Source: Alphaproteobacteria bacterium (lineage in GTDB: Bacteria > Pseudomonadota > Alphaproteobacteria > MPNO01). Taken from it: 64,000 nt of DNA. How positions within the stretch are numbered: position 1 is the first letter of the stretch; the number at the start of each line of letters is the position of its first letter. Shown in pieces: positions 9,291 through 49,105 of this stretch. The stretch lies in NCBI GenBank assembly GCA_964291675.2, contig OZ219866.1, positions 3,328,001 through 3,392,000 on the forward strand, given 5' to 3'. Position numbers and translations under genes: made by a program. Below the pieces are notes generated by a model. The model did not search any database. It had not been told where the DNA came from and saw only the letters and a list, made by a program, of their open reading frames with translations.

Positions 9291-9574
9291 CGCGGATCCT
9301 GCTCACCTACATCCTGCCTTTGGTCCTGCCCGCGCTGGTCTGGTACCTGTGGCACCAGTTCCGCCCGCAGCGGCCCGGCGAGGAGAAGAAGAAGGGCTGG
9401 CGGGCGGCGCCGGTGCCGCAGCTCGCCGTCGCCGGACTGGTGCTTCTCGCCGCCACGCTCGGCGCCTATGCGCTGCTGGTCGGCGGCGATCCGGGCGAGG
9501 TCTACCAGCCCGCCCGGCTGATCGACGGCGAGGTCGTGCCCGGGCAGCATTCCGACGCCCCGGGCGGCAACTGA
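9287..9574 (+). CDS. Small two-TM membrane protein (DUF6111-like)
   Basis: Two hydrophobic helices, C-terminal YQPARLIDGEVVPG; ATGA overlap with the Nudix gene. Confidence 0.8.
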   Translation: MTRILLTYILPLVLPALVWYLWHQFRPQRPGEEKKKGWRAAPVPQLAVAGLVLLAATLGAYALLVGGDPGEVYQPARLIDGEVVPGQHSDAPGGN

Positions 9575-9621
9575 ACGGCGTCTCCTTGCGACCGGCGGGA
9601 CGCATCGAACCCCGGGAGTGG

Positions 9622-10827: not shown

Positions 10828-10836
10828 AGGGAAGGC

Positions 10837-12372
10837 ATGCAGACCGCGTTCGACCTTGTCTGGCTGTCCGCCGAGCGGACCCCGGACCGCATCGCCATCG
10901 TCGACGACCTCACGGACCGCTCGCTCACCTATGCGGCGCTGATCGCCGAGATCGAGAGCGTCGCCGCCGGCCTGGCCGCGCGCGGGCTGGGCGCCGGCGA
11001 CCGGGTGGCGACGGTGCTTCCCGGCAGCTTCGACCACGCCGTCCTCCTGCTCGCGTTGCAGCGCCTGGCCGCGGTGCCGATGCTGCTCAACCACCGGCTC
11101 GGCCCGGCCGACATCGCCGCGCTCGCCGCCCACGGCGAGGCGCGGGCCGCAATCGTCGGGCCCGACCGGGCGCTCGCCGCCGCCGCCGCGGATGCGCTCC
11201 CCGACGGCGCGCCGGTACTCGCCCCGGCAGACTTGGCCGCCTGCCGGGGCGATCCGGCGCGGCTGGGCGAGCCGCCGCGCCCCGGCCGCGAGGACCCCGC
11301 CTTCGTGTTCTACACCTCGGGCACCACCGGCCTGCCCAAGGGCGTGGTGCTCGCCCAGCGCACCACCGAGCACCGCGTCCTCTGGCTCTCCACCCAGGCC
11401 GGTCTGCGCCATGGCGGGCACAACCGGACGCTCGGCTTCATGCCGCTCAGCCACGCCATCGGCTTCTACGGCGTGTTCCTGGTCACCCTCGCCTTCGGCG
11501 GCACCTATTACGCGATGACCAGCTTCGATCCGGCGGCGGCGGTCGAGATGACCGAGCGCCACGCGATCACCTACATGTTCGCGGTGCCGACGCTCTATCA
11601 CGCGATGACCCGGGCGCCCGGCTACGCGCCCGAGCGGATGCGCTCGCTGGAGCTGGTGCTGTTCGGCGGCGGGGTGATCGAGCCTGCGCTGATCCGCCAC
11701 ATCGACCGGCACTGGCCGGCGGCGATCCGCCACATCTACGGCACCACCGAGACCATGTGCTCGCTCTACAACCCCGACCCGGTGGACCGCCCGGCCTCGC
11801 TCCGCCCCGGCTTCTATTCGCGCACCAGGGCGGTCCGGCTCGGCGGCGGCCCCGACGACGCGGTGGGTCCCGGCGAGGAGGGCGAGCTGATCATCGACGC
11901 CAGCGCGGATGCGACCTTCTCGGGCTATCTCAACCGGCCCGAGGCGACGGCCGAGAAGCTGCGCGGCGGCTGGTACTATTCGGGCGACATCGTCGAGGTC
12001 GAGGCCGACGGCGATCTCAGGCTGCGCGGGCGGGTCGACGACGTGATCCGCTCGGGCGGCGAGAACATCCACCCCGGGGAGGTCGAGGCCGCGCTCGCCG
12101 CCCATCCCGGAATCGCCGATTGCTGCGTCATCGGCCTGCCCGATGCGCGCTGGGGCGAGGCGGTGCTCGCCTGCGTCGTCGCCGCCGGCGAAGCGCCCGC
12201 GGCGGCCGCGCTCGACGCCCATTGCCGGGCGGGCGGCCTCGCCGGGTTCAAGCGGCCCAAGGGGTATCTCTTCGTCGACGCGCTGCCGCGCAACGCGGCC
12301 AACAAGGTGCTGCGCCGCGAGCTCCGCCAGACCGCCGAGGCGGGCGCGGACGCGATCCGGCGGCCGGGCTGA
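10837..12372 (+). CDS. Aryl-CoA ligase resembling 4-chlorobenzoate:CoA ligase (FcbA)
   Basis: AMP-binding motifs FYTSGTTGLPKG, IYGTTE, GRVDDVIRSGGENIHP, LPRNAANKVLRR; STQAGLRHGGHN and PGFYSRTRAVRLGGGPDD segments recall 4-CBA ligase (from memory). Confidence 0.8.
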   Translation: MQTAFDLVWLSAERTPDRIAIVDDLTDRSLTYAALIAEIESVAAGLAARGLGAGDRVATVLPGSFDHAVLLLALQRLAAVPMLLNHRLGPADIAALAAHGEARAAIVGPDRALAAAAADALPDGAPVLAPADLAACRGDPARLGEPPRPGREDPAFVFYTSGTTGLPKGVVLAQRTTEHRVLWLSTQAGLRHGGHNRTLGFMPLSHAIGFYGVFLVTLAFGGTYYAMTSFDPAAAVEMTERHAITYMFAVPTLYHAMTRAPGYAPERMRSLELVLFGGGVIEPALIRHIDRHWPAAIRHIYGTTETMCSLYNPDPVDRPASLRPGFYSRTRAVRLGGGPDDAVGPGEEGELIIDASADATFSGYLNRPEATAEKLRGGWYYSGDIVEVEADGDLRLRGRVDDVIRSGGENIHPGEVEAALAAHPGIADCCVIGLPDARWGEAVLACVVAAGEAPAAAALDAHCRAGGLAGFKRPKGYLFVDALPRNAANKVLRRELRQTAEAGADAIRRPG

Positions 12373-37125: not shown

Positions 37126-38481
37126 ATGCAAGTCACCCAGATCAGCGCCGACGGGCTCAAGCGGGCCTACCGCATCAGCGTCCCCGCCGCCGACATCGAG
37201 GACAAGGTGGTCGCCCGGCTGACCGATCTCGGCCGCGAGGCGCGCATCCCCGGCTTCCGCGCCGGCAAGGCGCCGCTCGCCATCTTGCGCCGGCGCTTCG
37301 GCGAGGCGGTCAGGGGCGAAATTCTGCAATCGGCGATCGTGGATGCGACGCAGAGCGCGATCGATGGCGAGGGCATCCGCCCGGCCATGCAGCCCGACAT
37401 CGAGGACCTCGAATTCGAGGACGGCAAGGACCTCGAATACACGCTTGCGCTGGAGCTGATGCCCGAGATCGAGCCGCCCGACCTCGCGGCGCTCGCGCTG
37501 GAGCGCATGGTGGTCGCGGTCGACGAGGCGCGGGTCGAGGAGGCGATCGGCCGCCTCGCCGAACGGCACCGGCATTTCAGCCCGGCGGCCGACGGCGCGG
37601 CGGCCGCCGACGGCGACGAGCTGGTGATCGACTTCGAGGGCAGCATCGACGGCGAGCCCTTCGAGGGCGGCGCGGCGGAGGATTTCGTGCTCCGCCTGGG
37701 CTCGGACCGCTTCGTCCCCGGCTTCGAGGCGCAGCTCGTCGGCGCGCGGGCGGGCGATGAGAAGACCGTCGCGATCGACTTCCCCGACGACTACCCGAAC
37801 GACGCGCTCGCCGGCAAGGCGGCGAGCTTCGCCGTCGCCGTCAAGGAGTTGCGCAGCGCCGACGCGCTCCTGATCGACGACGCGCTCGCCAAGCATCTCG
37901 GCGCCGAGGACCTCGATGCGCTCAGGACCGCGATCCGGGGACAGATCGAGGACGAGTTCGCCAGCCTCTCGCGCGCCCGGCTCAAGCGCTCGCTGCTCGA
38001 CACGCTGGCCGAGCGCGACGGGTTCGACCTGCCGCCCGGCATGGTGGAGCGCGAGTTCGAGACCATCTGGAGCCAGGTCGAGGAGGCGAAGCGGAAGGGC
38101 GATCTCGACGCCGACGACGAGGCGCTCGCCGAGGACGAGCTGCGGGCGCGCTACCGCACCATCGCCGAGCGCCGGGTCCGCCTCGCGCTGATCCTGTCGG
38201 AGATCGGCCGGGCCAACAACATCCAGGTGAGCGAGGACGAGCTCAACCGGGCGATGATGGAGCAGGCCCGCATGATGCCCGACCGGGCGGCGCAGGTCTT
38301 CGAGTTCTACCGCGACAACCCCGACGCGATGCAGTCGCTGCAGGCGCCGATCTTCGAGGACAAGGTGGTGGATTTCGTCATCGAGATGGCGCAGGTGACG
38401 GAGCGCGCGGTCGAGCTCGACGAGCTCACCGCCGAGCCCGCCGATGGGGACGCCGCGCCGGAGGAGGGGCAGGACGGATGA
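37126..38481 (+). CDS. tig: Trigger factor
   Basis: [10 protein letters not shown] signature, FKBP domain [24 protein letters not shown]. Confidence 0.97.
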
Positions 38482-39123
38482 GCACGGACGCGAGGATGAA
38501 CGCCCTGGTGCCGATGGTGGTCGAGCAGACCAACCGCGGCGAGCGGGCCTACGACATCTTCTCCCGGCTGCTGAAGGAGCGCATAATCTTCCTGATCGGC
38601 GGGGTCGACGATGCGGTCGCCTCGCTGATCTGCGCCCAGATGCTGTATCTCGAATCGGAGAACCCGACCAAGGACATCGCGTTCTACGTCAACTCGCCGG
38701 GCGGGCTGGTGACCTCGGGGCTCGCGGTCTACGACACCATGCAGTACATCCGCCCGGAGATCTCGACGGTGTGCATCGGCCAGGCCGCCTCGATGGGCTC
38801 GCTGCTGCTGGCCGCCGGCGCCAAGGGCAAGCGCTACTCGCTGCCGCATGCGCGGATCATGGTGCACCAGCCCTCGGGCGGGTTCCAGGGCCAGGCCTCC
38901 GACATCGAGATCCACGCGCGCGAGATCCTGACCCTGCGCGGGAGGCTCAACCGGATCTATGTCGAGCACACCGGCCAGGACATCGGCACCATCGAGGAGG
39001 CGATGGAGCGCGACCGCTTCCTGTCGCCCGACGACGCCAAGGCGTTCGGCATCATCGACGAGGTCGTCGCCAGCCGCCCCGCCCCCGAGGCCGAGCCCGC
39101 CAGCGGCGGGTGAAGGGGGGGGA
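38146..39123. repeat. Direct repeat copy 1 (about 980 bp): 3' end of tig + clpP
   Basis: Matches 43719-44698 at offset 5573 with only about 10 substitutions counted by eye. Confidence 0.95.
38478..39113 (+). CDS. clpP: ATP-dependent Clp protease proteolytic subunit, copy 1
   Basis: [37 protein letters not shown]. Confidence 0.97.
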
Positions 39124-39452
39124 CCCGTCCGTCGTTTCGACCGCAGCTCCAAAGACGCGAAGCGGAAAGAGCCGTTGCTTGAGGGGCAGGACGCCTCCGC
39201 CCCGCGCGGACGCCCCGCCGTTCCCGAAAGCCATCATCCCTGGCCGCCGGGAGAGGCAACTGTCAGGCGATTGCCCTATCTGTACAAACCGAAGGCGATT
39301 GAGGTCGCCGTCACATCCACGACAAGTTCTTCCACTAACCAACTAGTCGGCCATTCTCGGAACAGGCGCTAATTGTGTCGGAATGTCATAACACGATCTT
39401 GTTGTGAGCAATGGCGAGCCAATACGCGCCAGGACGTCAGCGTTGCCCCGTA

Positions 39453-39875
39453 CTACTTGTTTCCCGCCGCCACCAAGTGCGGCCTGAATCCCGACTCGTC
39501 CGGCATGATCTCCGTGTAATGGCAGTACCCCTCTGCCGTACGAACTTCCGCCGCCCGTTCGATCCACTTCTGAGTCCGTAGAAGGCCAACGAACAGCGTC
39601 AGCGCATTGCCATCCTGAATTCGGTGGAACGTCTCTCGCGTGTACATCCCGAACGACAGGAAACTACGCCGCCGAGGAGGACCCCCCTCTTTGCCGACGA
39701 CTTCCAGCAGTGTGCCTCTGAGCACGATCCCGAAGGCTAATGCCCACGGGTGGCTGTGCAAGCGCTCAGTGCTCTCCTGACCGCCGTATTGGTGTACGTA
39801 AACTGTAATCCAATGCCCGCGCAGCCCACGCCGATGGAGCCACGAGCCTTGAATTTTTACGTTGATGGTTCTCAT
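39453..39875 (-). CDS. Cupin-like protein
   Basis: LHSHPW..IVLRGTLLE (motif 1) and FHRI (motif 2); GAGGA RBS 5 nt after the kinase stop. Confidence 0.7.
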   Translation of the reverse strand: MRTINVKIQGSWLHRRGLRGHWITVYVHQYGGQESTERLHSHPWALAFGIVLRGTLLEVVGKEGGPPRRRSFLSFGMYTRETFHRIQDGNALTLFVGLLRTQKWIERAAEVRTAEGYCHYTEIMPDESGFRPHLVAAGNK

Positions 39876-39880
39876 GTCCT

Positions 39881-40567
39881 CTACGTCTTACCCGCTGCGC
39901 CCTCGACCCCTGATGTCGAAGCGATGCACGCACCTGCCCACCGCCAGCTGTCGATGAGTCCAATGCATCGCTCGATCACGGCTCGGCTGGTTAGAGAGCT
40001 GTCTACTATCGCATCGGCCGCCAAAGGCAACTTGTCCGTCATGTCTGCTTCGACGACATGACTTGACGCCCTGTCGAAGTCCTCCGATTCCGTGGCAGAT
40101 CGTTCTCCGACCCGGATCGAGCGCAATCTGGAGTCCGTCTCCAGGTAAATCATGCGCATCTCAGAAGGTGCCGCCATCCGAATGAGATGCGGCAGCACGT
40201 CGACATGCCGCACGCCGTCCAACACGAAATCCTCGCCGGGAACGAACCCTCCCGCTGCTAGCACGTCCCTGCAAAACGCCTCCGCGTCTTGCTCAATCCG
40301 GTATTGACCAAGATCTTGAAGCAACTCCCGGCAATCGGGATCGCTCCCGCGCGCTGCCAACACGTTGCTCAGGTAGCCGCCAAAGCTGGTGTACCCACAC
40401 CCCAGGGCTTTCGCGACCGCGACGCTTGTCGAGGTCTTGCCGCTGCCGATCTTTCCCGAAAAGCACACGAGCACGGCATTCGGCATTATCCGGGCGGAAT
40501 CCGTATCAGTACCAGACACCTCGTGCCCGGTCTGTGTGCCGCCTTCCGCGGCTCCGTCCGTGCTCAT
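39881..40567 (-). CDS. P-loop nucleotide (NMP/dNMP/dephospho-CoA) kinase-like protein
   Basis: FSGKIGSGKT Walker A, RELLQDLG, FVLDGVRH, lid-like RLRSIR; GAGGGAG RBS. Confidence 0.8.
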   Translation of the reverse strand: MSTDGAAEGGTQTGHEVSGTDTDSARIMPNAVLVCFSGKIGSGKTSTSVAVAKALGCGYTSFGGYLSNVLAARGSDPDCRELLQDLGQYRIEQDAEAFCRDVLAAGGFVPGEDFVLDGVRHVDVLPHLIRMAAPSEMRMIYLETDSRLRSIRVGERSATESEDFDRASSHVVEADMTDKLPLAADAIVDSSLTSRAVIERCIGLIDSWRWAGACIASTSGVEGAAGKT

Positions 40568-40653
40568 CTCGGGTCTCCCTCGCTCCACTGGTTACAGCTC
40601 TCCACCGATCGCGTCTCATGAATTTCGCCGTCCCATCGACCACGCTCTCACGC

Positions 40654-41247
40654 TCACCAAACCGAGGGAGGAGCTTGTCGCAGGTTCGGCACCTTGACGG
40701 GTATCTCTGCCAACTCGGGCAGACGATCGTCAAGAAAACAATCCACCAGTGCAGCGCAGTACTCCTGCTCCTCGGCGGTCAATTCCCTGCCTTTCGGAAT
40801 GTTATGCCAGTACTCAAGGCAGGTCCGGCAACATGTGGCCGTCGCGTGCTGGGCGTAGAATATGGCGTTCCCTTCGAACGGCGTCTGGCGTCCGTCCCGG
40901 GCGGGCTGCGCAGGAGCGAGATACTTGGTGAGCCGGTGCCGTGCCGCCTCTTTGAGCCGAATTCGACCCTTCCGCTGTGCATGCCGAACAGCCTTCTCGT
41001 CAAGTTTCCTGTGGAAGAAGTAGTGCCGGATCATCTCGTTCCTTAAAGCCGCGAAGGTGTACTCGACATCACCGAAGTCGCGCACGTGAAGCCTATTCCA
41101 GTCCACAAGATCAGCACCGCAGTACCGGCACCTCCCGCGTTGCTCCTGGGTCATCTTCTTCAGCTGTTTGAAGCAATGCAGATCATTCTCGCAGTCCGCC
41201 GACGTGCACTTGATGTTGAGGGGTGGCGGTCTTTGAAACTCGGGCAT
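40654..41247 (-). CDS. DUF4186 family protein with N-terminal Cys/His (Zn-finger-like) extension
   Basis: DGRQTPFEGNAIFYAQHATATCCRTCLEYWHNIPKGRELT; N-terminal CTSADC..LHC..CRYC; GAGGAG RBS. Confidence 0.8.
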   Translation of the reverse strand: MPEFQRPPPLNIKCTSADCENDLHCFKQLKKMTQEQRGRCRYCGADLVDWNRLHVRDFGDVEYTFAALRNEMIRHYFFHRKLDEKAVRHAQRKGRIRLKEAARHRLTKYLAPAQPARDGRQTPFEGNAIFYAQHATATCCRTCLEYWHNIPKGRELTAEEQEYCAALVDCFLDDRLPELAEIPVKVPNLRQAPPSVW

Positions 41248-41257
41248 TCGGATCTCC

Positions 41258-42712
41258 TCAATTCAGCGCACGATCAAGCAAAGAGCGATCGATTTCGTCT
41301 TCGATATGGTACGGATACCGCTCAAAAAATACGTCGCGCGCGACGGTCCACGGGTCTTCGTCCTCGCGCTGAAGCTTGGCAGCCGCACCCCACCAGTCGA
41401 GGCCCTGCCGGGACAACCGGAAGGCCAGGTAGTTCGCGAGCGCGCCGACGCTCACTCCCCGCTTCTTCGCCACTCGCCGGACCACACGTTGCAATCGCGG
41501 GATCATGTTGTTGGCCTGTGCAACGCAATCCTCGGCGAGTTCGTTCGCCTTGCCATCTAGCATCACGTCTCCGGCAAACTGGCTGGCCGCGATCTCCTCA
41601 TCCGATTCCCGACGTTCGCTGGACGTTGCTTCCGCCTCAACCAGCTCGAATGCCTGTTCGTCAGGCCGTTGCGCCGCATGGAACACCTCGTGGAGCAGAT
41701 CAAACGTCCAACGCGCTTCATGCCTCGACGTCTGCTTCAGCACGATCGCGTTACGGCCCTCGTAGCGCCAACACGCGCCGTGGAAAGTCCCTGTTCCCCT
41801 GAGTGGAAGCACAACCACCCCAAGGTCCCACACCGTGTGAAGAACCGTGCGGAGATCGTCCCTTCCCTCGCCGCGAGCCAAAATCTTCTTTCGCATTTCG
41901 CCCGGATCGGTCGGGATTGACTCAATAGGGTAGCCGGCCATCCCCCGTATGGCCACGACGGCCAGGTGATTGGCGTAGGTCGCGAAGAGTCCTGCGGCGC
42001 CCTCGTCACGTCGCTTCGGCATCTTGAAACGTGCGGCAGCCGCCGCCGTCATAGGTGCGGGCAATGCTTGAGCGCCGAAGATGTCGTCGCGCCTCCATCC
42101 GAAGACGCGCTCCAGCGCGGCTGCCGCTTTCGCGGTCAGTCTCTGGTCATTCCACTGATCCGGCACTTCGCCATCTGCGATGGCGGCATCCGCTGAACAC
42201 AACAAGCGTTCCACCACGAAGTCCCGACCCAGCCCCACCTGGCTGACCTTCGCGAGGAACCCCTTGAAGCTATCCGGCACGACGGGAAGTAGAATTTCGT
42301 TTTCTATCCGTAGCTCCAGGGCGCGCGCTACCTGGCACAGTCGCTGGTAGCTTGCGGACGCATAGCGCTCCGCCTCGTATCGTTGGATCTGCTGTTCCTT
42401 GAGATTTAGACGTTGCGCAAGCGCCCGTTGGCTGAGACCCCCTGCGATCCTGGCCTTGATCAAGCCATCCGCAAGTTCTTCGAACGAGCCTACTGAAATG
42501 ACTGACACCTCGGCTGATTTCAACTGCTCGTATTCCTCCAACTCTTCCCGCAGGTCTTCCAGTTGGCTCTCCATGGCCTCTCGTTCGGCCTGCACGAGCC
42601 TTGGATGCACGTCTGCCCGGTTGTCCGATTTGACATCGAATTCCTCGATTGCACGGGCAAAGCCGTGCGCCTTCTTTCGCGTGATTCGGTACTGTCTCTC
42701 GTTGGTGATCAT
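41258..42712 (-). CDS. XRE-HTH fused to ImmA/IrrE-family Zn metallopeptidase
   Basis: MITNERQY helical N-terminus, LIKARIAGGLSQRALAQRLNLKEQQIQRYE HTH, FDLLHEVFH (HExxH), EIAASQFAGDVML; ATGA overlap with the upstream gene. Confidence 0.88.
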   Translation of the reverse strand: MITNERQYRITRKKAHGFARAIEEFDVKSDNRADVHPRLVQAEREAMESQLEDLREELEEYEQLKSAEVSVISVGSFEELADGLIKARIAGGLSQRALAQRLNLKEQQIQRYEAERYASASYQRLCQVARALELRIENEILLPVVPDSFKGFLAKVSQVGLGRDFVVERLLCSADAAIADGEVPDQWNDQRLTAKAAAALERVFGWRRDDIFGAQALPAPMTAAAAARFKMPKRRDEGAAGLFATYANHLAVVAIRGMAGYPIESIPTDPGEMRKKILARGEGRDDLRTVLHTVWDLGVVVLPLRGTGTFHGACWRYEGRNAIVLKQTSRHEARWTFDLLHEVFHAAQRPDEQAFELVEAEATSSERRESDEEIAASQFAGDVMLDGKANELAEDCVAQANNMIPRLQRVVRRVAKKRGVSVGALANYLAFRLSRQGLDWWGAAAKLQREDEDPWTVARDVFFERYPYHIEDEIDRSLLDRALN

Positions 42713-43146
42713 GGCAAACTCCCCAGATCGATCAGCACGACGCCTTTTTGGACGCCGTTGCGGTCGGTCATAAAGAAGTCTCGAAAGAGCACTCCCGGCG
42801 CGGCACGTGCCGACGCCGGGAAGAGGTCTCCGAGATATTTCGCTTTCATCGCCGCCCGGGGGTGCTCCAAGTCGAGAAGCACCGGGTCCAATCGGTTCAG
42901 ATCGACACCCGCCGTTTCCCAAGCGGCGTCGTAATCCCCCGGCAGCGCCTTGGCCGTAACGAAGCTCCCGTCCAGCAACAGCTTCGCGCATCCGGCCATC
43001 GCCAAGTTGCGGCACGCAGCCAGCAAACCTTCCATCAGTCGAGCGCGATGGCTATTGCCAGCGAAGCGACGGGCGACATCGTGCCACCCAGCATCGTGGA
43101 TGCCTGGTGGGAGGTAGCCGGTCTTGGAGTCAAGTTTGGGTATCAC
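42709..43146 (-). CDS. Minimal nucleotidyltransferase-like protein (DUF6932 type)
   Basis: GYLPPGIH, LLLDGSFVTAKALPGDYD (GS..DxD pol-beta motif), KGVVLIDL; GTG start. Confidence 0.8.
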   Translation of the reverse strand: MIPKLDSKTGYLPPGIHDAGWHDVARRFAGNSHRARLMEGLLAACRNLAMAGCAKLLLDGSFVTAKALPGDYDAAWETAGVDLNRLDPVLLDLEHPRAAMKAKYLGDLFPASARAAPGVLFRDFFMTDRNGVQKGVVLIDLGSLP

Positions 43147-43153
43147 ACACCCA

Positions 43154-43181
43154 ACTATATTGTTGTGTAGAATCATGTCAA
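43154..43181 (-). promoter_or_regulatory. sigma70 promoter of the five-gene operon, probably leaderless
   Basis: TTGACA-16 nt-TATAGT, with the GTG start 7 nt downstream and no SD. Confidence 0.6.
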
Positions 43182-43319
43182 CCCCAACGCCCCGTCCCCG
43201 ACTGCCACCCCGCACAAGGCCGGGGCGACAGGTTGGGCGCGAGCGGCGGCGTGGGCATTCCGGCCGCCATTGGCGAGAAAATCGGGCTTGCCGGCCTCGT
43301 CGCCGGCTTCCGTCGCGGT

Positions 43320-43718
43320 CATTTCCGGCAACACGCCCAGCAGCACCAGGGCGTCGCGGAGATCGGGGTCGTGGGCGGCGGCCCTTCGCGGATCGTTCGC
43401 GTCGAAGCGGTCTCACAGCGGGGCGGCCGGCGTGGGCTTTCGGTAGGTCGGCCACAGCTCTCGCAAGCGGCTCTCGGCGTGTTCCGCGGCCGGAAAATGT
43501 GCTTCGCGGCAGGGGTGATGCCGGACCAGCAGGCCTTCAAGCTTCGGCCTGAGATAGACCAACGGCAAGTCCCCGAGGCCGGGCACGGTTTCCGGGTCGC
43601 GGCCGGCGACGCGGTCCGCCGCGAGCCGGTCGGCGTCCGGGAAGACCAGCGCCCCGCTGTCCCGCATCCGCTGATCGTTGCGCCGCCGCCGGCGGTCGAC
43701 GGCGAATTCGACGACCGC
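43320..43718 (-). pseudogene. Middle/C-terminal fragment of an RloB/TOPRIM-like partner gene with internal stop
   Basis: Reads [78 protein letters not shown]; 5' end cut at the tig junction; about 43610-43685 repeats at about 46870-46950. Confidence 0.6.
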
Positions 43719-44054
43719 GCGCGCTACCGCACCATCGCCGAGCGCCGGGTCCGCCTCGCGCTGATCCTGTCGGAGATCGGCCGGGCCAACAACATCCAGG
43801 TGAGCGAGGACGAGCTCAACCGGGCGATGATGGAGCAGGCCCGCATGATGCCCGACCGGGCGGCGCAGGTCTTCGAGTTCTACCGCGACAACCCCGACGC
43901 GATGCAGTCGCTGCAGGCGCCGATCTTCGAGGACAAGGTGGTGGATTTCGTCATCGAGATGGCGCAGGTGACGGACCGCGCGGTCGAGCTCGACGAGCTC
44001 ACCGCCGAGCCCGCCGATGGGGACGCCGCGCCGGAGGAGGGGCAGGACGGATGA
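43719..44054 (+). pseudogene. tig: Duplicated 3' fragment of tig
   Basis: Near-identical to 38146-38481; no start or N-terminal domains. Confidence 0.92.
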
Positions 44055-44686
44055 GCACCGACGCGAGGATGAACGCCCTGGTGCCGATGGTGGTCGAGCA
44101 GACCAACCGCGGCGAGCGGGCCTACGACATCTTCTCCCGGCTGTTGAAGGAGCGCATAATCTTCCTGATCGGCGGGGTCGACGATGCGGTCGCCTCGCTG
44201 ATCTGCGCCCAGATGCTGTATCTCGAATCGGAGAACCCGACCAAGGACATCGCCTTCTACGTCAACTCGCCGGGCGGGCTGGTGACCTCGGGGCTCGCGG
44301 TCTACGACACCATGCAGTACATCCGCCCGGAGATCTCGACGGTGTGCATCGGCCAGGCCGCCTCGATGGGCTCGCTGCTGCTGGCCGCCGGCGCCAAGGG
44401 CAAGCGCTACTCGCTGCCGCATGCGCGGATCATGGTGCACCAGCCCTCGGGCGGGTTCCAGGGCCAGGCCTCCGACATCGAGATCCACGCGCGCGAGATC
44501 CTGACCCTGCGCGGCAGGCTCAACCAGATCTATGTCGAGCACACCGGCCAGGACATCGGCACCATCGAGGAGGCGATGGAGCGCGACCGCTTCCTGTCGC
44601 CCGACGACGCCAAGGCGTTCGGCATCATCGACGAGGTCGTCACCAGCCGCCCCGCCCCGGAGGCCGAGGCCGCCAGCGGCGGGTGA
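44051..44686 (+). CDS. clpP: ATP-dependent Clp protease proteolytic subunit, copy 2
   Basis: Intact; differs from copy 1 at 3 residues (R/Q, A/T, P/A). Confidence 0.95.
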
Positions 44687-44809
44687 AGGGGGGGGGACGG
44701 AGAGCAGGCCGAGGCCGGCCACGCCACCCCGTACCGTTCACAGCGCATTTGCGGCGCGGCGTATCGAGGGACCGCCGCGCCCCTTGCCAACGCCCCGCCG
44801 TTTCCCGCA

Positions 44810-45590
44810 TCCCGTCATGCCCGGCCCCCGGATCGAGTTCGGGGGTGATCCGGGCACCAACTGCCGCCGCCGGCACAACGCCCCCCGTCGGGCGAGGCTG
44901 TGGCAGCAGTGGGTGGCCGGTACGGCCCCGCTCATCCCCCCCGTCATGGCCGGACTTGATCCGGCCATCCATGCGGCGTCCCCGCCTGCGAGGCGGCCGG
45001 CGGGAAGGGGCGGCGGCGCCAGTGGATGCCCGGATCAAGTCCGGGCATGACGATGGGGGGAGGCATGGCGCTGGGGCGGGGAACGCCGGGCGCGATCCGC
45101 GTCGAAGGCTAAACCGGACAGCAGTGGACTTGATCCGGGCATCCACTGGCGCCGCCGCTCCTCCCGACGGGGCGTTGTACCGGTGGCGCCAGTGGTTGCG
45201 CGGATCGAGTCCGCGCATGGATGGCCGGATCAAGTCCGGCCATGACGGGGTGGTGAAGATGGGGGGTGAAGTTGGGGGGACGAGGCGTCCCTCGATGCGC
45301 GGCTTCGCCGCTACTCACGATGAGGGCGAGGCTTGGGCCGGGCACCGACTGCTGCCGCCGGCACATCGGCCCGTCGGGCGCGGCTGTGGCGCCAGTGGGT
45401 GGCCGATACGGCCCCGCTCATCCCCCCCGTCATGCCCGGACTTGATCCGGGCATCCACTGCCGCCGCCGGCACATCGGCCCGTCGAGCGCGGCTGTGGCG
45501 CCAGTTGGTGGCCGGATCACCCCCGGACTCGATCCGGGGGCCGGCCATGACGAGGGGGGTGAAGATGGGGGGTGACGATGGGGGGCCGGA
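44810..45590. repeat. Large composite REP cluster containing one about 312-bp unit (45131-45442)
   Basis: Family A arms, a degenerate family B copy, and TAAACCGGACAGCAGTG at 45110; the unit recurs at 48408 and 48721. Confidence 0.9.
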
Positions 45591-46115
45591 TCAGCCCGAC
45601 GGCCGATGTCGGAACAGGCCGAGCCCGAGGCTTCGACGCAGGGTCAATTGCCGGCGTCGGTATTTCTGGAAATACAGGATGAGGTCCGCCGCCTCCTGCT
45701 GGACCGCCATGGCGCGGGAGACATCGATGGCGCGATCGTCGACCTCGTAGTCCGGCCCTCCGGTCGTCAGGTCCCCGAATTCGACCAAGCGCTTCGCATG
45801 CGTGAGAGGGTCGTCTCTCGAGGCGCGTGCCAACTCTACCGCGAGCCCATTGAGACGGCGAAAGAGTCCGACGAGGCGCGCTTCGGCCTGCCGGTCGCTG
45901 AGGTCGTCGATCTTCAGCCAGTAGTTGGTCGAAATTTCCGCCGCCTGCAGTATCGCGCCCCGGAGTTCGTCGTATCGCTGGGAGTGCTCGTCGACCCTGC
46001 TTTGCCAGACGCGAATGGCGAGGGCGGCGAACCATCCCAACAGGAAAGCGAGCAGGAGCTTGACGCCGTCCGACGTCAAACTCAGCCAAGGGTCTGGTGG
46101 CGGAGGTTCCGGCAA
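45591..46115 (-). CDS. Hypothetical protein with N-terminal TM helix (putative effector)
   Basis: VKLLLAFLLGWFAALAIRVW then a helical domain; directly downstream of STAS; TTG start uncertain. Confidence 0.6.
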   Translation of the reverse strand: MPEPPPPDPWLSLTSDGVKLLLAFLLGWFAALAIRVWQSRVDEHSQRYDELRGAILQAAEISTNYWLKIDDLSDRQAEARLVGLFRRLNGLAVELARASRDDPLTHAKRLVEFGDLTTGGPDYEVDDRAIDVSRAMAVQQEAADLILYFQKYRRRQLTLRRSLGLGLFRHRPSG

Positions 46116-46146: not shown

Positions 46147-46485
46147 CTATTGCGGTCGCGCGTTGTCCATGTACCGGTTCGCGGACAACCGATAGGTCTC
46201 GTAGAGCGGGTCCAACGCCTTGAGTTCAAGGTGGCGCTTCACCTGTTCGCGGCCGAACAGGCGCCGACGGATCAGTCCGCCGAATGCTTCCTCCAGGAAC
46301 GACGAACCGTAGCCGTGGGTTCCGTCCAGTACGATGACCAGCTTGTCGTCCGACCCAATGGCCCTCCCCAGCAGATGGCCGAGCACATCGTCGCGGAACT
46401 CTTCGCCGCTATAGGGTCCGTGTTTCCTGAAGCGCCCTCCCGGCGTCGTCGAGAACTCGTCCGCGATTCTGTAGGTCATCGCCAT
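46147..46485 (-). CDS. STAS-like domain protein (DUF4325 type)
   Basis: IADEFSTTPGGRFRKHGPYSGEEFRDDVL, VLDGTHGYGSSFLEEAFGGL. Confidence 0.85.
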   Translation of the reverse strand: MAMTYRIADEFSTTPGGRFRKHGPYSGEEFRDDVLGHLLGRAIGSDDKLVIVLDGTHGYGSSFLEEAFGGLIRRRLFGREQVKRHLELKALDPLYETYRLSANRYMDNARPQ

Positions 46486-46869
46486 CCTGCCGCGCTCCCA
46501 CCAAAGCCGGAAACGCCAACGAACCGGCGTACCGCCGATCGAGCGATCGAGGGTTTCCGCCGTTTCGCCAGTACCCTTCCGATATATGTACCGTCCCCTT
46601 CTTGACAAGATTTGCGGGGACCCGAACGCAGCGCGATCTTTCGTTCCCGCATCTGCGCCGAGTCGCAGCCGCGTCCCGGCTCCTCGTAGGCACTGCGGCC
46701 CGCCGCCCAGGCCGCCCGGATACGCAGGCCGTCGTTTGCCGAGTCGAGACCCATCGCATTCGCGGACCGTTCCAGCCATTGACGCGCAAGTTCGCGCCGG
46801 CCGGAGTGCGGCAGCGCAGCGGGGGTGGCCGCTCCCGGATCGAGGAATATCGCCTCCAATGCGCACCCG
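46486..46869 (-). pseudogene. Frameshifted C-terminal remnant of a GHKL/HATPase kinase
   Basis: IFLDPGAATPAALP (DxG box), RSAYEEPGRGCDS (degenerate GxGL box), then in another frame ILSRRGRYIY..SIGGTPVRW leading into STAS. Confidence 0.55.
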
Positions 46870-47008
46870 GCGGCGCGGTCCGCCGCGAGCCGGTCGGCGT
46901 CGAGGAAGACCGGCGCCCCGCCGTCCCGCATCCGCGACCCGTTGCGCCGTCGCCTTCCGCCGCGGCGAAGATGCGTCGGCGGCGCGCGATGGGCCTGCGC
47001 GGCGGCAC
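46870..47008 (-). pseudogene. N-terminal fragment of the RloB/TOPRIM-like gene with internal deletion
   Basis: GTG 3 nt after the ATPase stop: MPPRRPIARRRRIFAAAEGD, then jumps frame to [23 protein letters not shown]. Confidence 0.6.
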
Positions 47009-47011
47009 GGG

Positions 47012-48220
47012 TCAGCCGAGCGAGGGCAGCCCGCCCAGCGCGCCGCCGCGGTAGAGCTTTCGGAGATCGGCGCCCCGGCGCAGCCCCGCGACATCGCGCA
47101 CGCCATAGGCCTGGGTGGCTCCTTCCCGGTCCTTCTCGACGATGAACACCTCTTCCTTTTCCAGGTCGTCGAGCGCCGACAGGCCGTGCAGCGAGCAGAT
47201 AAGCTGTGCGTTACGGGGGTTGGTGTCTTCGCGCCGGAACCAGCCCAAAATCTCGTCCACCAGGTCGGCGTGCAGGTCGTTGTCGAGCGCGTCCATTACC
47301 GCCAGCCCGCCGGATTCGAGCGCGTTGTCGAGCGCCGGAAATACTTGCACGGCCTGACGGGTCCCGGCGGACTCCCCTTCGAAGGTCACTGGCATGCCGA
47401 GACCGGAATGGGCAAAGACCAGGTACCAGTTCCCGTTACCCGCCTGAACCACGTTCATGCTCTCGATCCCGAGATCGAATCGTTCGAACCTGTCGGAGAT
47501 TCGTTTCCTCGCTCCGGGGGTTTCCCGGAAATAGGCGGTTATGGCGCGGTCCGAGAGGCGCATCGGTTCGACCGCCGTGACGTTCGTTTGCACCCCGTCC
47601 AAATCGTCCACCATCGCTGAAAACGTCTCGACGCCCATACGGGAAAGGGTCGACAGGGCCGAGGCGTCCCGCGGAACCGAGGCGAGCCGGTCGTCGCTCG
47701 GTCTGATGCCCATGTGCCTCGCGACGTAGACCGGTCCATCGCCGCGGCGTTCCATCAACCGCCGGGGCCGGCCCCGCGGGAAATCGTGCAGCGCCTCGTA
47801 GCCCACGGCGCCGGGTTTGAAATCCCGTGTGTCCCTCCGCAATTCCACGGTGTAGCGGTACACGTCATTGGGCGCGTCCGGGCCGGAGAGCGGCCAGGGC
47901 GCGTCGAAACCCATTTCGACCCGGGTGGGCTTGCGCAGGGAGTCCTCGGAGGCAAACGCGTTGAAGCCTCCGAGGGAATCCGGTCCGTCGCCGTAGGAGC
48001 GCACCGCGAAGCGAACCGTATCCGCCAGCGCCCGCAAACAGGCCGACTTCCCCGACCCGTTGGGGCCGATCAGCGCAACCGCGGCCGGAACCCGGAGGTC
48101 GGACCGCGCGGTGGGGCGGCGCAGCCACGGCCGCTCCGGCGTGGTCCCCGGGACGCGGAAGTCCAGCGTGACCTCGTCCCGTATAGATCGGTAGTTGTTG
48201 ACCTTGATCCAGTGCAACAT
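47012..48220 (-). CDS. ABC-type AAA_21 ATPase (RloA/AbiEii-like)
   Basis: IKVNNYRSIRD, GPNGSGKS, ESAGTRQ signature, VMDALDNDLH Walker B variant, AQLICSLH, LYRGGALGGLP C-terminus. Confidence 0.88.
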   Translation of the reverse strand: MLHWIKVNNYRSIRDEVTLDFRVPGTTPERPWLRRPTARSDLRVPAAVALIGPNGSGKSACLRALADTVRFAVRSYGDGPDSLGGFNAFASEDSLRKPTRVEMGFDAPWPLSGPDAPNDVYRYTVELRRDTRDFKPGAVGYEALHDFPRGRPRRLMERRGDGPVYVARHMGIRPSDDRLASVPRDASALSTLSRMGVETFSAMVDDLDGVQTNVTAVEPMRLSDRAITAYFRETPGARKRISDRFERFDLGIESMNVVQAGNGNWYLVFAHSGLGMPVTFEGESAGTRQAVQVFPALDNALESGGLAVMDALDNDLHADLVDEILGWFRREDTNPRNAQLICSLHGLSALDDLEKEEVFIVEKDREGATQAYGVRDVAGLRRGADLRKLYRGGALGGLPSLG

Positions 48221-48373
48221 ATGTCTAGCCTGACATTTTTTTGTCGACTATGGGCTTTAACTTGAAAAGTGTCGTCAACAATGTCAATCGGCGTCGTTGC
48301 CGGAGGCGGTCCGCCCCGCCGCCATCCCGGGAAGTCCCGCTGGGCCGGATCGAGAGACCTCCATTCCCCCAAC

Positions 48374-49105
48374 CCGTCATGCCTGGCCCCCGGATCAAGT
48401 CCGGGGGTGATCCGGGCATCCACTGGCGCCGCCGCTCCTCCCGACGGGGCGTTGTACCGGTGGCGCCAGTGGTTGCGCGGATCGAGTCCGCGCATGGATG
48501 GCCGGATCAAGTCCGGCCATGACGGGGTGGTGAAGATGGGGGGTGAAGTTGGGGGGACGAGGCGTCCCTCGATGCGCGGCTTCGCCGCTACTCACGATGA
48601 GGGCGAGGCTTGGCCCGGGCACCAACTGCCGCCGCCGGCACAACGCCCCGTCGGGCGCGGCTGTGGCGCCAGTGGGTGCCCGATACGGCCCCGCTCATCC
48701 CCCCCCGTCATGCCCGGACTTGATCCGGGCATCCACTGGCGCCGCCGCTCCTCCCGACGGGGCGTTGTACCGGTGGCGCCAGTGGTTGCGCGGATCGAGT
48801 CCGCGCATGGGTGGCCGGATCAAGTCCGGCCATGACGAGGGGGGTGACGATGGGGGGTGACGATGGGGGACGAGGCGTCCCTCGATACGCGGCTTCGCCG
48901 CTACTCACGATGACGGCGAGGCTTGGCCCGGGCACCAACTGCCGCCGCCGGCACATCGGCCCGTCGGGCGCGGCCGTGGCACCGGTGGGTGGCCGCGGCG
49001 GCGCGTCGATGCGCGGGCGCGTGTCCCCCGATACGCCCCCGGCCCCCGCTCGTCCCCCCCGTCATGCCCGGCCCCCGGACTCGATCCGGGGGCCGGGCAT
49101 GACGC
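48374..49105. repeat. Composite REP cluster with about two tandem copies of the about 312-bp unit
   Basis: 48408-48720 nearly identical to 45131-45442; a second partial unit spans 48721 to about 48990. Confidence 0.9.

Follow-up and report, generated by a model that had tools for sequence, protein, structure and literature searches.

The window analysed here, a 64,000-nt stretch of alphaproteobacterial DNA, carries five intact, co-directional genes on the minus strand between 39453 and 43146 (an open-reading-frame reading that bears out the initial annotation):

42709–43146, minus strand: DUF6932 nucleotidyltransferase, 145 aa from GTG 43146 (155 aa if read from ATG 43176)
41258–42712, minus strand: HTH/M78 regulator, 484 aa
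40654–41247, minus strand: long-form zinc-finger DUF4186 protein, 197 aa
39881–40567, minus strand: adenylate-kinase-like P-loop kinase, 228 aa
39453–39875, minus strand: three-His monocupin, 140 aa

Reading the junctions recovered the tight spacing first described: the transferase and regulator genes share an ATGA stop/start overlap (42712–42709), followed by gaps of 10 nt (with a GGAG) before DUF4186, 86 nt before the kinase and 5 nt before the cupin. The earlier description of lower GC also holds, with 0.58–0.62 over 39500–42999 versus 0.64–0.73 in the flanks (around ~0.70), and third-position GC is 0.70 in the cupin, kinase and DUF4186 genes (n = 3) versus 0.91–0.97 in tig, clpP and other neighbours. 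So does the placement beside clpP among defence-like genes: the operon lies 339 nt downstream of clpP, and an AbiLi-like gene (PADLOC 2.9e-54) lies 3.8 kb away. Four further features surround the operon:

39294–39309, minus strand: terminator-like hairpin and T-run, a consensus match 144 nt past the cupin stop
43208–43716, minus strand: fragment S, a 5′-truncated gene piece directly upstream of the operon
38146–39122, plus strand: left copy of a 977-nt direct repeat (tig 3′ end and the whole of clpP)
43719–44695: right copy of the repeat, at an offset of 5573 from the left

The terminator-like consensus has 5 sites in the region versus 3.3 expected. The two repeat copies differ by 9 mismatches, and the 4596 nt between them contain the operon and fragment S, whose intact counterpart in relatives is the gene after the AbiLi-like gene. 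At four loci (L007–L010), the fragment S stretch follows a homologue of 46945–48306 with ~100 nt between the two matches at each locus, and in L007 a second ORF comes after the 402-aa gene.

The domains proposed for all five proteins hold up in Pfam scores, invariant motifs and, for the cupin, PDB fold matches. The transferase matches DUF6932 (PF22014; 7.3e-30, 104.7 bits); G70, S71, D81 and D83 of its GS and DxD motifs (numbered from ATG 43176) are invariant in 30 aligned rows, and the named clusters closest to it, NTP_transf_2/Polbeta (score 0.83), are no more than a lead. A link to CBASS-type synthases, which the initial annotation had drawn, found no support, as the CBASS models in PADLOC gave no match. 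The regulator consists of an N-terminal helical hairpin, an Xre HTH (approximately residues 84–137; HTH_3 3.5e-7), a middle region and an M78 (ImmA/IrrE-type) peptidase domain. This copy has no Pfam M78 hit at E ≤ 0.01, and we base the assignment on its invariant HExxH (341–345; E342 and H345 invariant, H341 in at least 90% of family rows) and on matches among its homologues, such as L021 (Peptidase_M78 2.3e-6, 27.8 bits, cut-off 22).

Among the downstream proteins, the DUF4186 member (PF13811; 1.7e-34, 118.6 bits) is of a long form with a Cys/His zinc-finger-like N-terminal extension; C14, C19, H24, C25, C40, C139, C140, C143 and C164 are invariant, and its model (pLDDT 69) found no PDB fold match at E ≤ 0.001. 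The kinase reaches AAA_18 at 5.2e-6 (27.4 bits, below the 29.4 cut-off) and keeps its Walker A motif, with G43 and K44 invariant; its family profile finds adenylate kinases (~3e-6) and AdkA-like 3lw7/3h0k along the full length. The cupin has no Pfam family match, and its AF2 model (pLDDT 78) has 98 PDB matches at E ≤ 0.001, all of those listed being cupins, together with a match to PHROG 4786, ‘cysteine dioxygenase’ (7e-9). H40, H42 and H84 occur in at least 90% of rows, and His, Cys and Tyr positions are invariant or nearly so across a family of 65 clusters at 51–83% identity, one further partial row at 99% being probably the window's own protein. No nuclease or membrane effector is recognizable in the operon.

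Two putative control elements lie at the head of the operon:

43154–43181, minus strand: sigma-70-type promoter TTGACA-16-TATAGT, 11/12 positions matching
43149–43168, unstranded: putative palindromic operator ACACAAC-N6-GTTGGGT, differing at one position from the consensus ACACAAC-N6-GTTGTGT

The promoter, already proposed in the initial annotation, is the sole such site within 39000–43800. Shuffled sequence yields a mean of 0.9 such sites, making the window match alone not significant; we regard it as significant because 20 of 30 aligned upstream regions from homologous loci have the same motif 59–64 nt ahead of a GYLPPG anchor. The palindrome covers part of the −10 box and stops 2 nt short of the start codon. 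It is the single match in 64 kb at up to two mismatches (0.03 expected) and the single site in the 4.8-Mb genome at up to one; it occurs exactly once, always just upstream of the transferase start, in 32 of 53 related loci (≤1 mismatch) and is absent from 518,285 bp of control loci. Some variants alter both arms together (CCCAAC..GTTGGG, ACACAAT..ATTGTGT, TACAAC..GTTGTA). GTG 43146 is the most likely start codon of the transferase, because this codon aligns with the ATG start of homologues and because the nearest relative, L051, also starts with GTG; ATG 43176 is disfavoured, as it sits inside the −35 box. With the first start codon ~7 nt past the −10 box, the mRNA should be leaderless, and leaderless GTG starts are often translated poorly. 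Together, the promoter and the palindrome over its −10 box point to a leaderless, self-repressed transcript, in keeping with the autoregulatory role first suggested for the HTH-protease.

Structure prediction supports binding of the transferase to the N-terminal hairpin of the regulator (residues 2–56 at the modelled interface). Three runs gave ipSAE values of 0.85, 0.89 and 0.85 (best control 0.01), sharing at least 50% of contacts with partner pLDDT of at least 86; of solved complexes, 58 of 80 attain the same mark, as do 2 of 110 mismatched pairs, counts that hold only roughly here, where our own alignments served as input. On these models, the pair looks like a toxin–antitoxin unit.

The genes stay together in unrelated genomes well beyond the transferase–HTH pair, a check that the initial annotation had proposed. 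Across 44 loci spanning at least eight phyla (Pseudomonadota, Bacillota, Planctomycetota, Actinomycetota, Chloroflexota, Verrucomicrobiota, Acidobacteriota and, in a MAG, the archaeal Thorarchaeota among them), the pair lies directly upstream of long-form DUF4186 in 39, and a kinase is matched downstream in 35; two of the five loci lacking the pair end at a contig edge. Cyanobacteriota plasmids bear the operon too. Long-form DUF4186 is the signature gene of the operon; the short form, of which E. coli yneG is one example, stands by itself on the chromosome in many Actinomycetota and in E. coli, within ordinary metabolic contexts, and every partner is absent at 37 of 37 short-form loci. In 32 of the 44 loci, genes for radical SAM, N6-methyltransferase-like and ASCH proteins intervene between DUF4186 and the kinase. 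The idea of a five-gene system therefore stands as to co-occurrence and needs correcting as to extent, the five-gene form being a reduced variant of a seven-gene operon. This form recurs in L016 and L018, with a split kinase in L015, decayed in L066 and lacking its 5′ part in L013, and 17 of the 65 cupin clusters have a longest contig exactly as long as that of a listed DUF4186 cluster. By sequence, the family core comprises the DUF6932 transferase, the Xre-HTH/M78 fusion, zinc-finger DUF4186 and the adenylate-kinase-like kinase, and gene order, catalytic motifs, promoter and palindromic operator are kept across phyla. The window operon is a derived variant, one that has lost the radical SAM, methyltransferase-like and ASCH genes and gained a cupin confined to its sub-clade.

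The distribution is patchy. The operon is absent from 40 relatives; DUF6932 scores above cut-off in 9 of 301 genomes of the class, only one other of which holds the full operon. Seven plasmids bear it, and the two inspected (Rhizobium, Tolypothrix) were typed as conjugative; in Tolypothrix, the portion of the source consulted places it within an 18.4-kb strain-specific insertion (PMC9679502). Flanking ORFs (137) match 251 PADLOC families, including RM, AbiE, Nsn, IetA and AriA, versus 52 families for 136 control ORFs, a qualitative comparison only, as it counts families rather than proteins and its controls are mostly Actinomycetota. PADLOC 2.0.0 does not list the system, and full-text literature searches found no published description, which bears out the initial view that the combination is not a named system.

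Several known systems resemble parts of this operon. Fused Xre HTH and HExxH peptidase proteins (Xre–COG2856) occur in operons with toxins, according to the part of Makarova et al. (2009) consulted (PMC2701414), and likewise sit beside a toxin-like enzyme among the first genes of a mobile operon; there, however, the partner is RelE or PIN rather than a DUF6932 transferase, and the regulator here has an N-terminal hairpin modelled to bind its partner. These operons and the comparable switches ImmR/ImmA, DdrO/IrrE and CapH/CapP share a palindromic operator over the promoter, whereas cargo of DUF4186, kinase and cupin, or of radical SAM, methyltransferase-like and ASCH proteins, is not described there. 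The regulator also matches RmrA of Rosmer (RmrT/RmrA; 5e-7 over residues 314–400 in the window copy, 3e-8 in L021), and L021 matches PD-Lambda-2_B (9.4e-5) over the peptidase part, but these matches are partial and weak (~27–31 bits), and in PADLOC the other four window proteins match neither RmrT nor another PD-Lambda-2 component. The transferase resembles the first gene of PADLOC candidate PDC-M63AB (PDC-M63A, 6.8e-10), a two-gene candidate whose PDC-M63B is unmatched among the window proteins and which, in the part of the report consulted, did not show defence in the E. coli host it comes from (bioRxiv 10.1101/2024.12.20.629700).

In MNT-HEPN, AbiEi/AbiEii and MenA/MenT, a small pol-beta-fold transferase and a DNA-binding partner that binds it form a translationally coupled two-gene unit. 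The coupling here with a putatively DNA-binding and transferase-binding partner is similar, but the transferase comes first, the partner has a peptidase and would control further genes, and HEPN, AbiE and DUF1814 models are unmatched in Pfam and PADLOC. The full-form operon also pairs a radical SAM protein with an NMP-kinase-like kinase, as do prokaryotic viperin and its nucleotide kinase (pVip/VakA). Those matches (pVip 6e-5 in L035 and 0.0031 in L021; VakA 0.0026) are weak and limited to the generic CxxxCxxC core and P-loop, and the window copy lacks any radical SAM gene. For the radical SAM protein, NCBIfam viperin scores no better than MoaA, QueE or NrdG.

We favour, at about even odds (roughly 0.5), the reading that the five genes are a horizontally acquired, self-repressed ‘cupin’ version of a mobile operon family that is so far undescribed and has a role in genetic conflict. 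The operon would be kept off by an HTH/M78 dimer bound to the palindrome, where it covers the −10 box and transcription start. The regulator's N-terminal hairpin would hold the transferase in antitoxin–toxin fashion, which would also render the pair addictive; its solitary occurrence in L107 and its full length in loci with eroded downstream genes (both described below) fit this view. The peptidase domain may, in analogy to ImmA, IrrE and CapP, be activated by stress, for example DNA damage or phage infection, inactivating the regulator, derepressing the operon and freeing the transferase. DUF4186, the kinase and the cupin would next work on a target that is a nucleotide or a nucleic acid, joined in the full form, beside DUF4186 and the kinase, by the radical SAM, methyltransferase-like and ASCH proteins. 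The net role would be anti-phage or abortive-infection defence, addiction of islands and plasmids, or both.

Among the alternatives, the one we rate highest, although still improbable, is a damage-inducible module for repair or for nucleic-acid or nucleotide modification, horizontally spread under an IrrE/DdrO-like switch and not phage-directed. One example of such a role is the cleanup or modification of damaged nucleotides, DNA or RNA. M78/Xre pairs govern Deinococcus repair genes in the portions of two sources consulted (PMC2701414; PMC12828697), short-form DUF4186 is a chromosomal gene on its own, and the kinase, dioxygenase-like cupin, ASCH, methyltransferase-like and radical SAM proteins are plausible repair or modification enzymes; the patchy spread, the plasmid and island locations, the defence-gene-rich flanks and the toxin–antitoxin-like modelled pair argue the other way. 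A shade less probable is that two unrelated units lie side by side, a selfish pair and enzymatic cargo (DUF4186, kinase, cupin) sharing no function. In L107, the pair does stand by itself amid housekeeping genes and has a perfect operator; in L104–L106, DUF6932 is paired with short HTH proteins lacking a peptidase; and the pair is full-length in L014, L045, L051, L066 and L072 despite truncated or missing downstream genes, which are lost in L020 too, though with the regulator itself in pieces. Against this separation stand the pair–DUF4186 adjacency across phyla at a gap of ~10 nt, the single promoter-like site and the rarity of long-form DUF4186 without the pair, seen only in L013, L029 and L049 where upstream sequence exists.

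Several sub-clade copies have decayed downstream of the regulator, and the cargo may therefore be dispensable. We nevertheless doubt that the window copy is a decaying remnant in which nothing but the addictive pair still counts while kinase, cupin and DUF4186 are being lost: a quick tree nests the radical-SAM-less clade within seven-gene rows, L015 retains a partial methyltransferase-like piece between DUF4186 and its split kinase, and DUF4186 is truncated in L051, L066 and L072, but the five window frames are all open with conserved motifs kept, the cupin family preserves its His, Cys and Tyr positions, and the same gene order is shared by Alpha- and Gammaproteobacteria and an Acidobacteriota MAG. 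Least probable is a role in secondary metabolism, with the genes forming a small cluster that makes a modified nucleoside or another small molecule and is governed by a local repressor. Tailoring roles are typical of radical SAM, methyltransferase-like, kinase and cupin enzymes, and the many cupins matched by the cupin model include the nucleoside dehydratase Pac13 (~4e-4), but Pac13 is one of 98 matches, at only 9–10% identity; transporter, carrier and scaffold-forming enzyme are all absent from the operon, and ASCH and a toxin–antitoxin-like pair would be unusual in such a cluster.

Overall, we envision this operon family as a mobile, self-repressed conflict system whose probable targets, when the cell is stressed or attacked by phage, are nucleotides or nucleic acids, with a nucleotide as the presumed substrate and defence or addiction as the role it may play for its hosts and carriers.

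Five adjoining minus-strand genes make up the operon:

39453–39875, minus strand: cupin gene, 140 aa, open frame
39881–40567, minus strand: kinase gene, 228 aa, open frame
40654–41247, minus strand: DUF4186 gene, 197 aa, open frame
41258–42712, minus strand: HTH/M78 regulator gene, 484 aa, open frame
42709–43146, minus strand: transferase (DUF6932) gene, 145 aa, open frame

The initial annotation had described five intact, co-directional genes of lower GC, and this description holds: all five frames are open, and their GC is 0.58–0.62, versus 0.64–0.73 outside. Third-position GC, given for three genes of the cluster (cupin, kinase and DUF4186), is 0.70; tig, clpP and other neighbours have 0.91–0.97. 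The tight coupling first noted is likewise present, with an ATGA overlap followed by gaps of 10, 86 and 5 nt and a purine-rich stretch ahead of each start. The TTGACA-16-TATAGT element proposed as the promoter lies at 43181–43154 and is the sole promoter-like site within 39000–43800, a site that taken by itself is no better than chance because shuffled sequences yield 0.9 such sites. The operon spans 3.7 kb in this form and 5.9 kb in the full form found elsewhere.

We anchored the comparison across genomes on the rarest recognisable gene, that for long-form DUF4186. The protein matches PF13811 over residues 63–172 (118.6 bits against a cut-off of 25, 1.7e-34), and its residues 1–62 are an additional Cys/His-rich extension exclusive to the operon-linked form; across 17 rows, nine Cys/His positions never vary. 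There were 1,133 relatives at E ≤ 0.001 among 1,251 candidates, the best 120 of which are 69–89% identical and mostly 190–207 aa long. Scanning one genome per species yielded 291 confirmed stretches, and among the best 80, which were kept, 43 loci carry the long form. To these we added L108, a locus found via DUF6932, and scored partner genes by tblastn in the resulting 44 loci. Matches to the transferase and the HTH/M78 regulator lie immediately upstream of DUF4186 in 39 of the 44, meaning that the co-occurrence in unrelated genomes on which the proposal of a multigene system depended is real. The kinase gene follows DUF4186 in 35/44 loci, a radical SAM gene occurs in 32/44, a methyltransferase-like gene in 29/44, an ASCH gene in 27/44 and the cupin gene in 5/44. 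Two of the five loci with no transferase match are cut by a contig end (L036 and L046), two have the regulator gene reduced to a C-terminal remnant (L013 and L029) and one, L049, has neither gene. None of 37 control loci with stand-alone, short-form DUF4186 (L054–L092 minus L066 and L072) carries any partner gene. Hosts of the long form include Alpha-, Beta- and Gammaproteobacteria, Paenibacillus, Planctomycetota, Actinomycetota, Dehalococcoidales, Verrucomicrobiota and metagenome-assembled genomes (MAGs) of Acidobacteriota and Thorarchaeota.

The full form has seven genes, which in Bradyrhizobium (L021) run DUF6932, HTH/M78, DUF4186, radical SAM, a protein with a DPPW motif, ASCH and kinase. 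Here the radical SAM protein has 343 aa, a CxxxCxxC motif and a PF04055 match at 8.9e-7, the DPPW protein has 444 aa and the ASCH protein 167 aa. A viperin-like identity for the radical SAM enzyme was rejected, as its matches cover the generic core only. The DPPW protein, in the fused form found in L044, weakly matches an N6-adenine methylase and the PADLOC model mad2. The same seven-gene row is present in RefSeq on conjugative plasmids of Rhizobium and Tolypothrix, where its products are named hypothetical, XRE family regulator, DUF4186, hypothetical (twice), ASCH and AAA family ATPase.

Several loci depart from this order. The methyltransferase-like and ASCH genes are fused in L044 (Dehalococcoidales, 9588–11465) and L053 (Chthoniobacterales, 9570–11378), encoding proteins of about 600–625 aa, and we argue from these fusions that the two proteins work together. 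The methyltransferase-like gene is absent from three full-form loci, with the order radical SAM, ASCH, kinase in L034 and L042 and radical SAM, kinase in Paenibacillus (L035), so the middle module is itself variable. On a Rhizobium plasmid (L112, NZ_CP076855.1, 12947–14209), a DUF763 gene running in the same direction overlaps the stop codon of the kinase gene and could therefore be an eighth gene there; we saw no common eighth gene across the remaining loci. The Thorarchaeota MAG (L048, 3085–7965) holds transferase, regulator and DUF4186 genes in the bacterial order; upstream of these, encoded on the other strand, are its radical SAM, ASCH and kinase genes.

The comparison indicates that the window's form is a derived variant of the seven-gene operon. 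A quick maximum-likelihood tree of 34 regulator proteins, from which rows with a regulator ORF outside 455–510 aa were excluded, places the window with L051, L015, L072, L045 and L016 in a six-row clade (SH-aLRT 100) inside an 18-row clade (SH-aLRT 97) whose remaining 12 rows are all seven-gene. The radical SAM gene is found in 0/6 rows of the window's clade, and L015 retains a partial methyltransferase-like remnant. The cupin is restricted to this sub-clade, and its family amounts to just 65 clusters in a collection of 5.8 billion proteins. For 17 of the 65, the longest contig is identical in size to that of a listed DUF4186 cluster, suggesting that these cupin and DUF4186 genes share a contig. 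A main alternative is that the window copy is a decaying remnant. On that side are L015, which has the five-gene order with its kinase gene in two pieces, and L066, which has it in decayed form; on the other, the complete five-gene order recurs in L016 and L018.

Ahead of the transferase start, DNA aligned from 30 loci shares a pattern of TTGAC(A/G), about 11 nt, ACACAAC-N6-GTTGTGT, 0–3 nt and ATG. A TTG..N16-18..TA...T arrangement stands at a constant distance from the coding anchor in 20 of the 30 rows. At one mismatch or fewer, 32 of 53 related loci have a single copy of the palindrome each, in every case just before the transferase start; the 37 short-form control loci, 518,285 bp in all, have none. 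In some of the other loci both arms have changed: CCCAAC..GTTGGG in L045, ACACAAT..ATTGTGT in L018, L044 and L052, and TACAAC..GTTGTA in L050. Such paired changes would be expected under selection by a DNA-binding protein that acts as a dimer. The window's palindrome (43168–43149) has one mismatch to the consensus and is the sole match in the window at up to two mismatches (0.03 expected) and in the 4.8-Mb genome at up to one. It overlaps the –10 box, and self-repression of the operon through this putative operator is likely. Since the transferase start lies about 7 nt after the –10 box, the transcript should be leaderless; that start is GTG in the window and its nearest relative, L051, aligned with ATG elsewhere. 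In the Thorarchaeota MAG the palindrome is perfect and is preceded by an A/T-rich TTTAAAT stretch instead of a TTGACA box.

The first two genes appear to form a unit of their own. The transferase belongs to DUF6932 (PF22014, 104.7 bits against a cut-off of 27, 7.3e-30, profile positions 1–142 covered). A GS motif with DxD carboxylates is a hallmark of the pol-beta fold, and all 30 rows of homologues keep G70, S71, D81 and D83, so the protein carries the pattern predicted for a pol-beta-type nucleotidyltransferase. Its similarity to NTP_transf_2 (score 0.83) is a lead only, and PDB sequence searches, with the single sequence and the profile, gave no match. The regulator has an Xre HTH (HTH_3, 3.5e-7) and an HExxH zinc site whose E342 and H345 are the same in all 30 rows and whose H341 is kept in at least 90% of them. 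Its C-terminal part (residues 314–400) matches the peptidase region of RmrA at 5e-7. The window protein has no PF06114 row in Pfam at E ≤ 0.01; its 65% identical homologue in L021 reaches Peptidase_M78 (PF06114) with 27.8 bits against a cut-off of 22. PDB searches with the regulator gave nothing for the single sequence and generic HTH matches only for the profile.

Complex models of the transferase with regulator residues 1–150 scored 0.85, 0.89 and 0.85 by ipSAE against 0.01 for the best control, with at least 50% of contacts shared between runs and partner pLDDT of at least 86. Among solved complexes 58 of 80 reach the mark we used, as do 2 of 110 mismatched pairs; because the alignments were our own, these counts are only approximate here. 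The modelled interface joins a helical hairpin of the regulator (residues 2–56) to transferase residues 78 and 88–141, which supports binding of the transferase to this predicted N-terminal hairpin. DUF6932 scores over its cut-off in 9 of 301 genomes of the class, including the window's own. Among the other eight, L108 has the whole seven-gene operon, L107 has the pair alone amid housekeeping genes with a perfect operator, three (L104–L106) have DUF6932 beside a protein resembling the regulator's first 135–151 residues only, and three (L109–L111) have it with no similar neighbour.

Both genes of the pair are full-length, with downstream genes truncated or gone, in L014, L045, L051, L066 and L072; in L020 the downstream genes are gone and the regulator itself is in pieces. 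This pattern fits an addictive two-gene unit, and it agrees with an earlier prediction (PMC2701414) that Xre-COG2856 fusions act together with toxins in systems of three components. It is also where another main alternative, that the pair merely carries hitch-hiking cargo, finds its evidence; the adjacency of the pair to DUF4186 in 39 of the 44 loci is evidence on the side of a joint system.

Foldseek with the AF2 model of the DUF4186 protein found no PDB fold at E ≤ 0.001, a weak blank because model pLDDT is only 69, and PDB sequence-profile searches with the DUF4186 and cupin families returned nothing useful. The kinase keeps its Walker A motif (G43 and K44 invariant), and its family profile matches adenylate kinase 1 at about 3e-6 over some 130 residues and the AdkA-like archaeal proteins 3lw7/3h0k over the full length; its AAA_18 score, 27.4 bits, is slightly below the Pfam cut-off of 29.4. 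This predicted kinase might act on a nucleotide, on the end of a nucleic acid or on another kind of substrate. The cupin protein matched no Pfam family, and its AF2 model (pLDDT 78), which fits the double-stranded beta-helix fold of the superfamily, has 98 PDB matches at E ≤ 0.001, all cupins among the matches listed, the best being KdgF (5fq0, 3.1e-5, TM 0.54/0.67). At least 90% of rows have H40, H42 and H84, and the HxH lacks a following Glu, a pattern of three-His thiol dioxygenases. The cupin also matches a phage family, PHROG 4786, annotated 'cysteine dioxygenase', at 7e-9.

In 40 related genomes nothing matches the five-gene DNA; matches there are confined to a 509-nt fragment at the right end of the insert (43208–43716) and short repeats. 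Long-form DUF4186 is carried by 7 of 72,556 plasmids and by no phage record at 80% coverage or more; the three phage records that match DUF4186 are all short form, each covering less than 80% of the query. In Tolypothrix PCC 7712 the copy lies within an 18.4-kb insertion specific to that strain, along with an integrase and recombinases (PMC9679502). We also surveyed the two nearest ORFs on each side of the 44 system loci at E ≤ 1e-5. These 137 ORFs match 251 PADLOC families, including type I/II restriction–modification, AbiEi/AbiEii, NsnA/B, IetA and AriA, and 136 ORFs beside short-form genes match 52, mostly many models of one kinase family, a comparison that is qualitative only because families rather than proteins were counted and the control loci are taxonomically different. 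By Pfam, the 137 ORFs include Phage_integrase in three and restriction domains, methylase domains, rve and Mu transposase in two each.

The window itself has an AbiLi-like ATPase gene (47012–48220; PADLOC 2.9e-54, Pfam AAA_21) followed by a DUF4325 (STAS-like) gene, the two lying within 46147–48220, and 46862–46954 is 87% identical to 43598–43690, the start of the right-end fragment. With these two genes and this stretch, the region from clpP to clpX (53777) is a variable, defence-like hotspot. The insert (39123–43718, 4,596 nt) sits between 977-nt direct repeats (38146–39122 and 43719–44695), each comprising the last 336 nt of tig and the entire clpP, with nine differences between copies. The window thus has two full clpP genes (38478–39113 and 44051–44686) and a second, 5'-truncated tig end. 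The right-end fragment is homologous to DNA after the AbiLi-like gene in relatives L007–L010. A 5,573-nt donor stretch of a close relative's DNA, with one end inside tig and the other inside the gene that comes after abiLi, could have circularised and entered by a single crossover within the tig–clpP homology, which would fit both the repeats and the fragment. The direct repeat may instead reflect an assembly problem in a mixed sample. The island is present in one mixed-sample run at about 9x, and two further runs of that study hold next to none of it. Short contigs of the island-holding run confirm the clpP-to-island junction, and among those listed none bridges 43716/43719, leaving the assembly as the sole source for the 977-nt duplication. 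The genome has two contigs, 93.7% completeness and 6.7% contamination, and is probably metagenome-assembled, since the sole island-holding run is a very large mixed-sample contig set. Dense families of short, GC-rich palindromic repeats lie at 44700–45600 and 48300–49100, with further copies near 16.6–17.3 kb, 31 kb and 33 kb; their summed contig depth in sequencing run X1 is in the thousands, versus about 9 for the island.

The operon, a combination that the initial annotation did not recognise as a named system, is absent as a system from PADLOC 2.0.0, which gave partial matches only (such as RmrA and PDC-M63A), and NCBIfam has no system-level name for it. Membership of Rosmer (RmrT/RmrA) was rejected with no RmrT match among the five proteins, and that of PDC-M63 with A matched by the transferase at 6.8e-10 and no B match; PDC-M63AB is an untested candidate that gave no defence in one native-host study (bioRxiv 10.1101/2024.12.20.629700). 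Also rejected were a CBASS CD-NTase (at E ≤ 0.01 the five proteins gave no hit to a CBASS model), an MNT-HEPN toxin–antitoxin (the transferase's neighbour is the HTH/M78 protein, with no HEPN match) and AbiE (no model matched). In full-text literature, with subscription journals and supplements outside the search, DUF6932 was not found and nothing addressed the function of DUF4186; nor was a description of the operon found, in a scope that also excluded newer defence catalogues.

Taken together, the comparisons show, at the level of sequence, a conserved, mobile operon with a conserved operator and a head that resembles a toxin–antitoxin pair. Whether the family is a conflict system is close to an even bet, and its trigger, chemistry and biological role we infer. 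The main alternative on function is a stress or repair module; on its side is an enzyme set that would be plausible in repair or modification, and on the side of conflict are the restriction–modification and Abi families among the neighbours. We give a probability of roughly 15% to the whole reading, in which the operon is a new stress- or phage-triggered immune system of many bacterial phyla and Asgard archaea whose enzymes would generate or tag a modified nucleotide or nucleic acid. This chemistry would fall to the radical SAM, kinase, methyltransferase-like and ASCH proteins in the full form; in the window's form, a three-His cupin would take the place of radical chemistry. The transferase, which its own repressor-protease would restrain, would in either form act as executioner or produce the signal.

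The operator is nearly invariant from Alphaproteobacteria to Actinomycetota, Verrucomicrobiota and a Thorarchaeota MAG, the enzyme set matches no defence or toxin–antitoxin system among the catalogues tested, and natural variants of seven and five genes allow core parts to be told from exchangeable ones. If the conflict-system reading holds, the operon would be a well-defined, readily cloned system with clear predictions and a new effector module for Xre/M78-controlled conflict systems. DUF4186 and DUF6932, families of no known function, would gain a genetic setting and roles that can be tested. Under the immune-system reading, DUF4186 would be a new metal-binding, nucleic-acid-handling fold, which would also offer a first functional lead on E. 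coli YneG.
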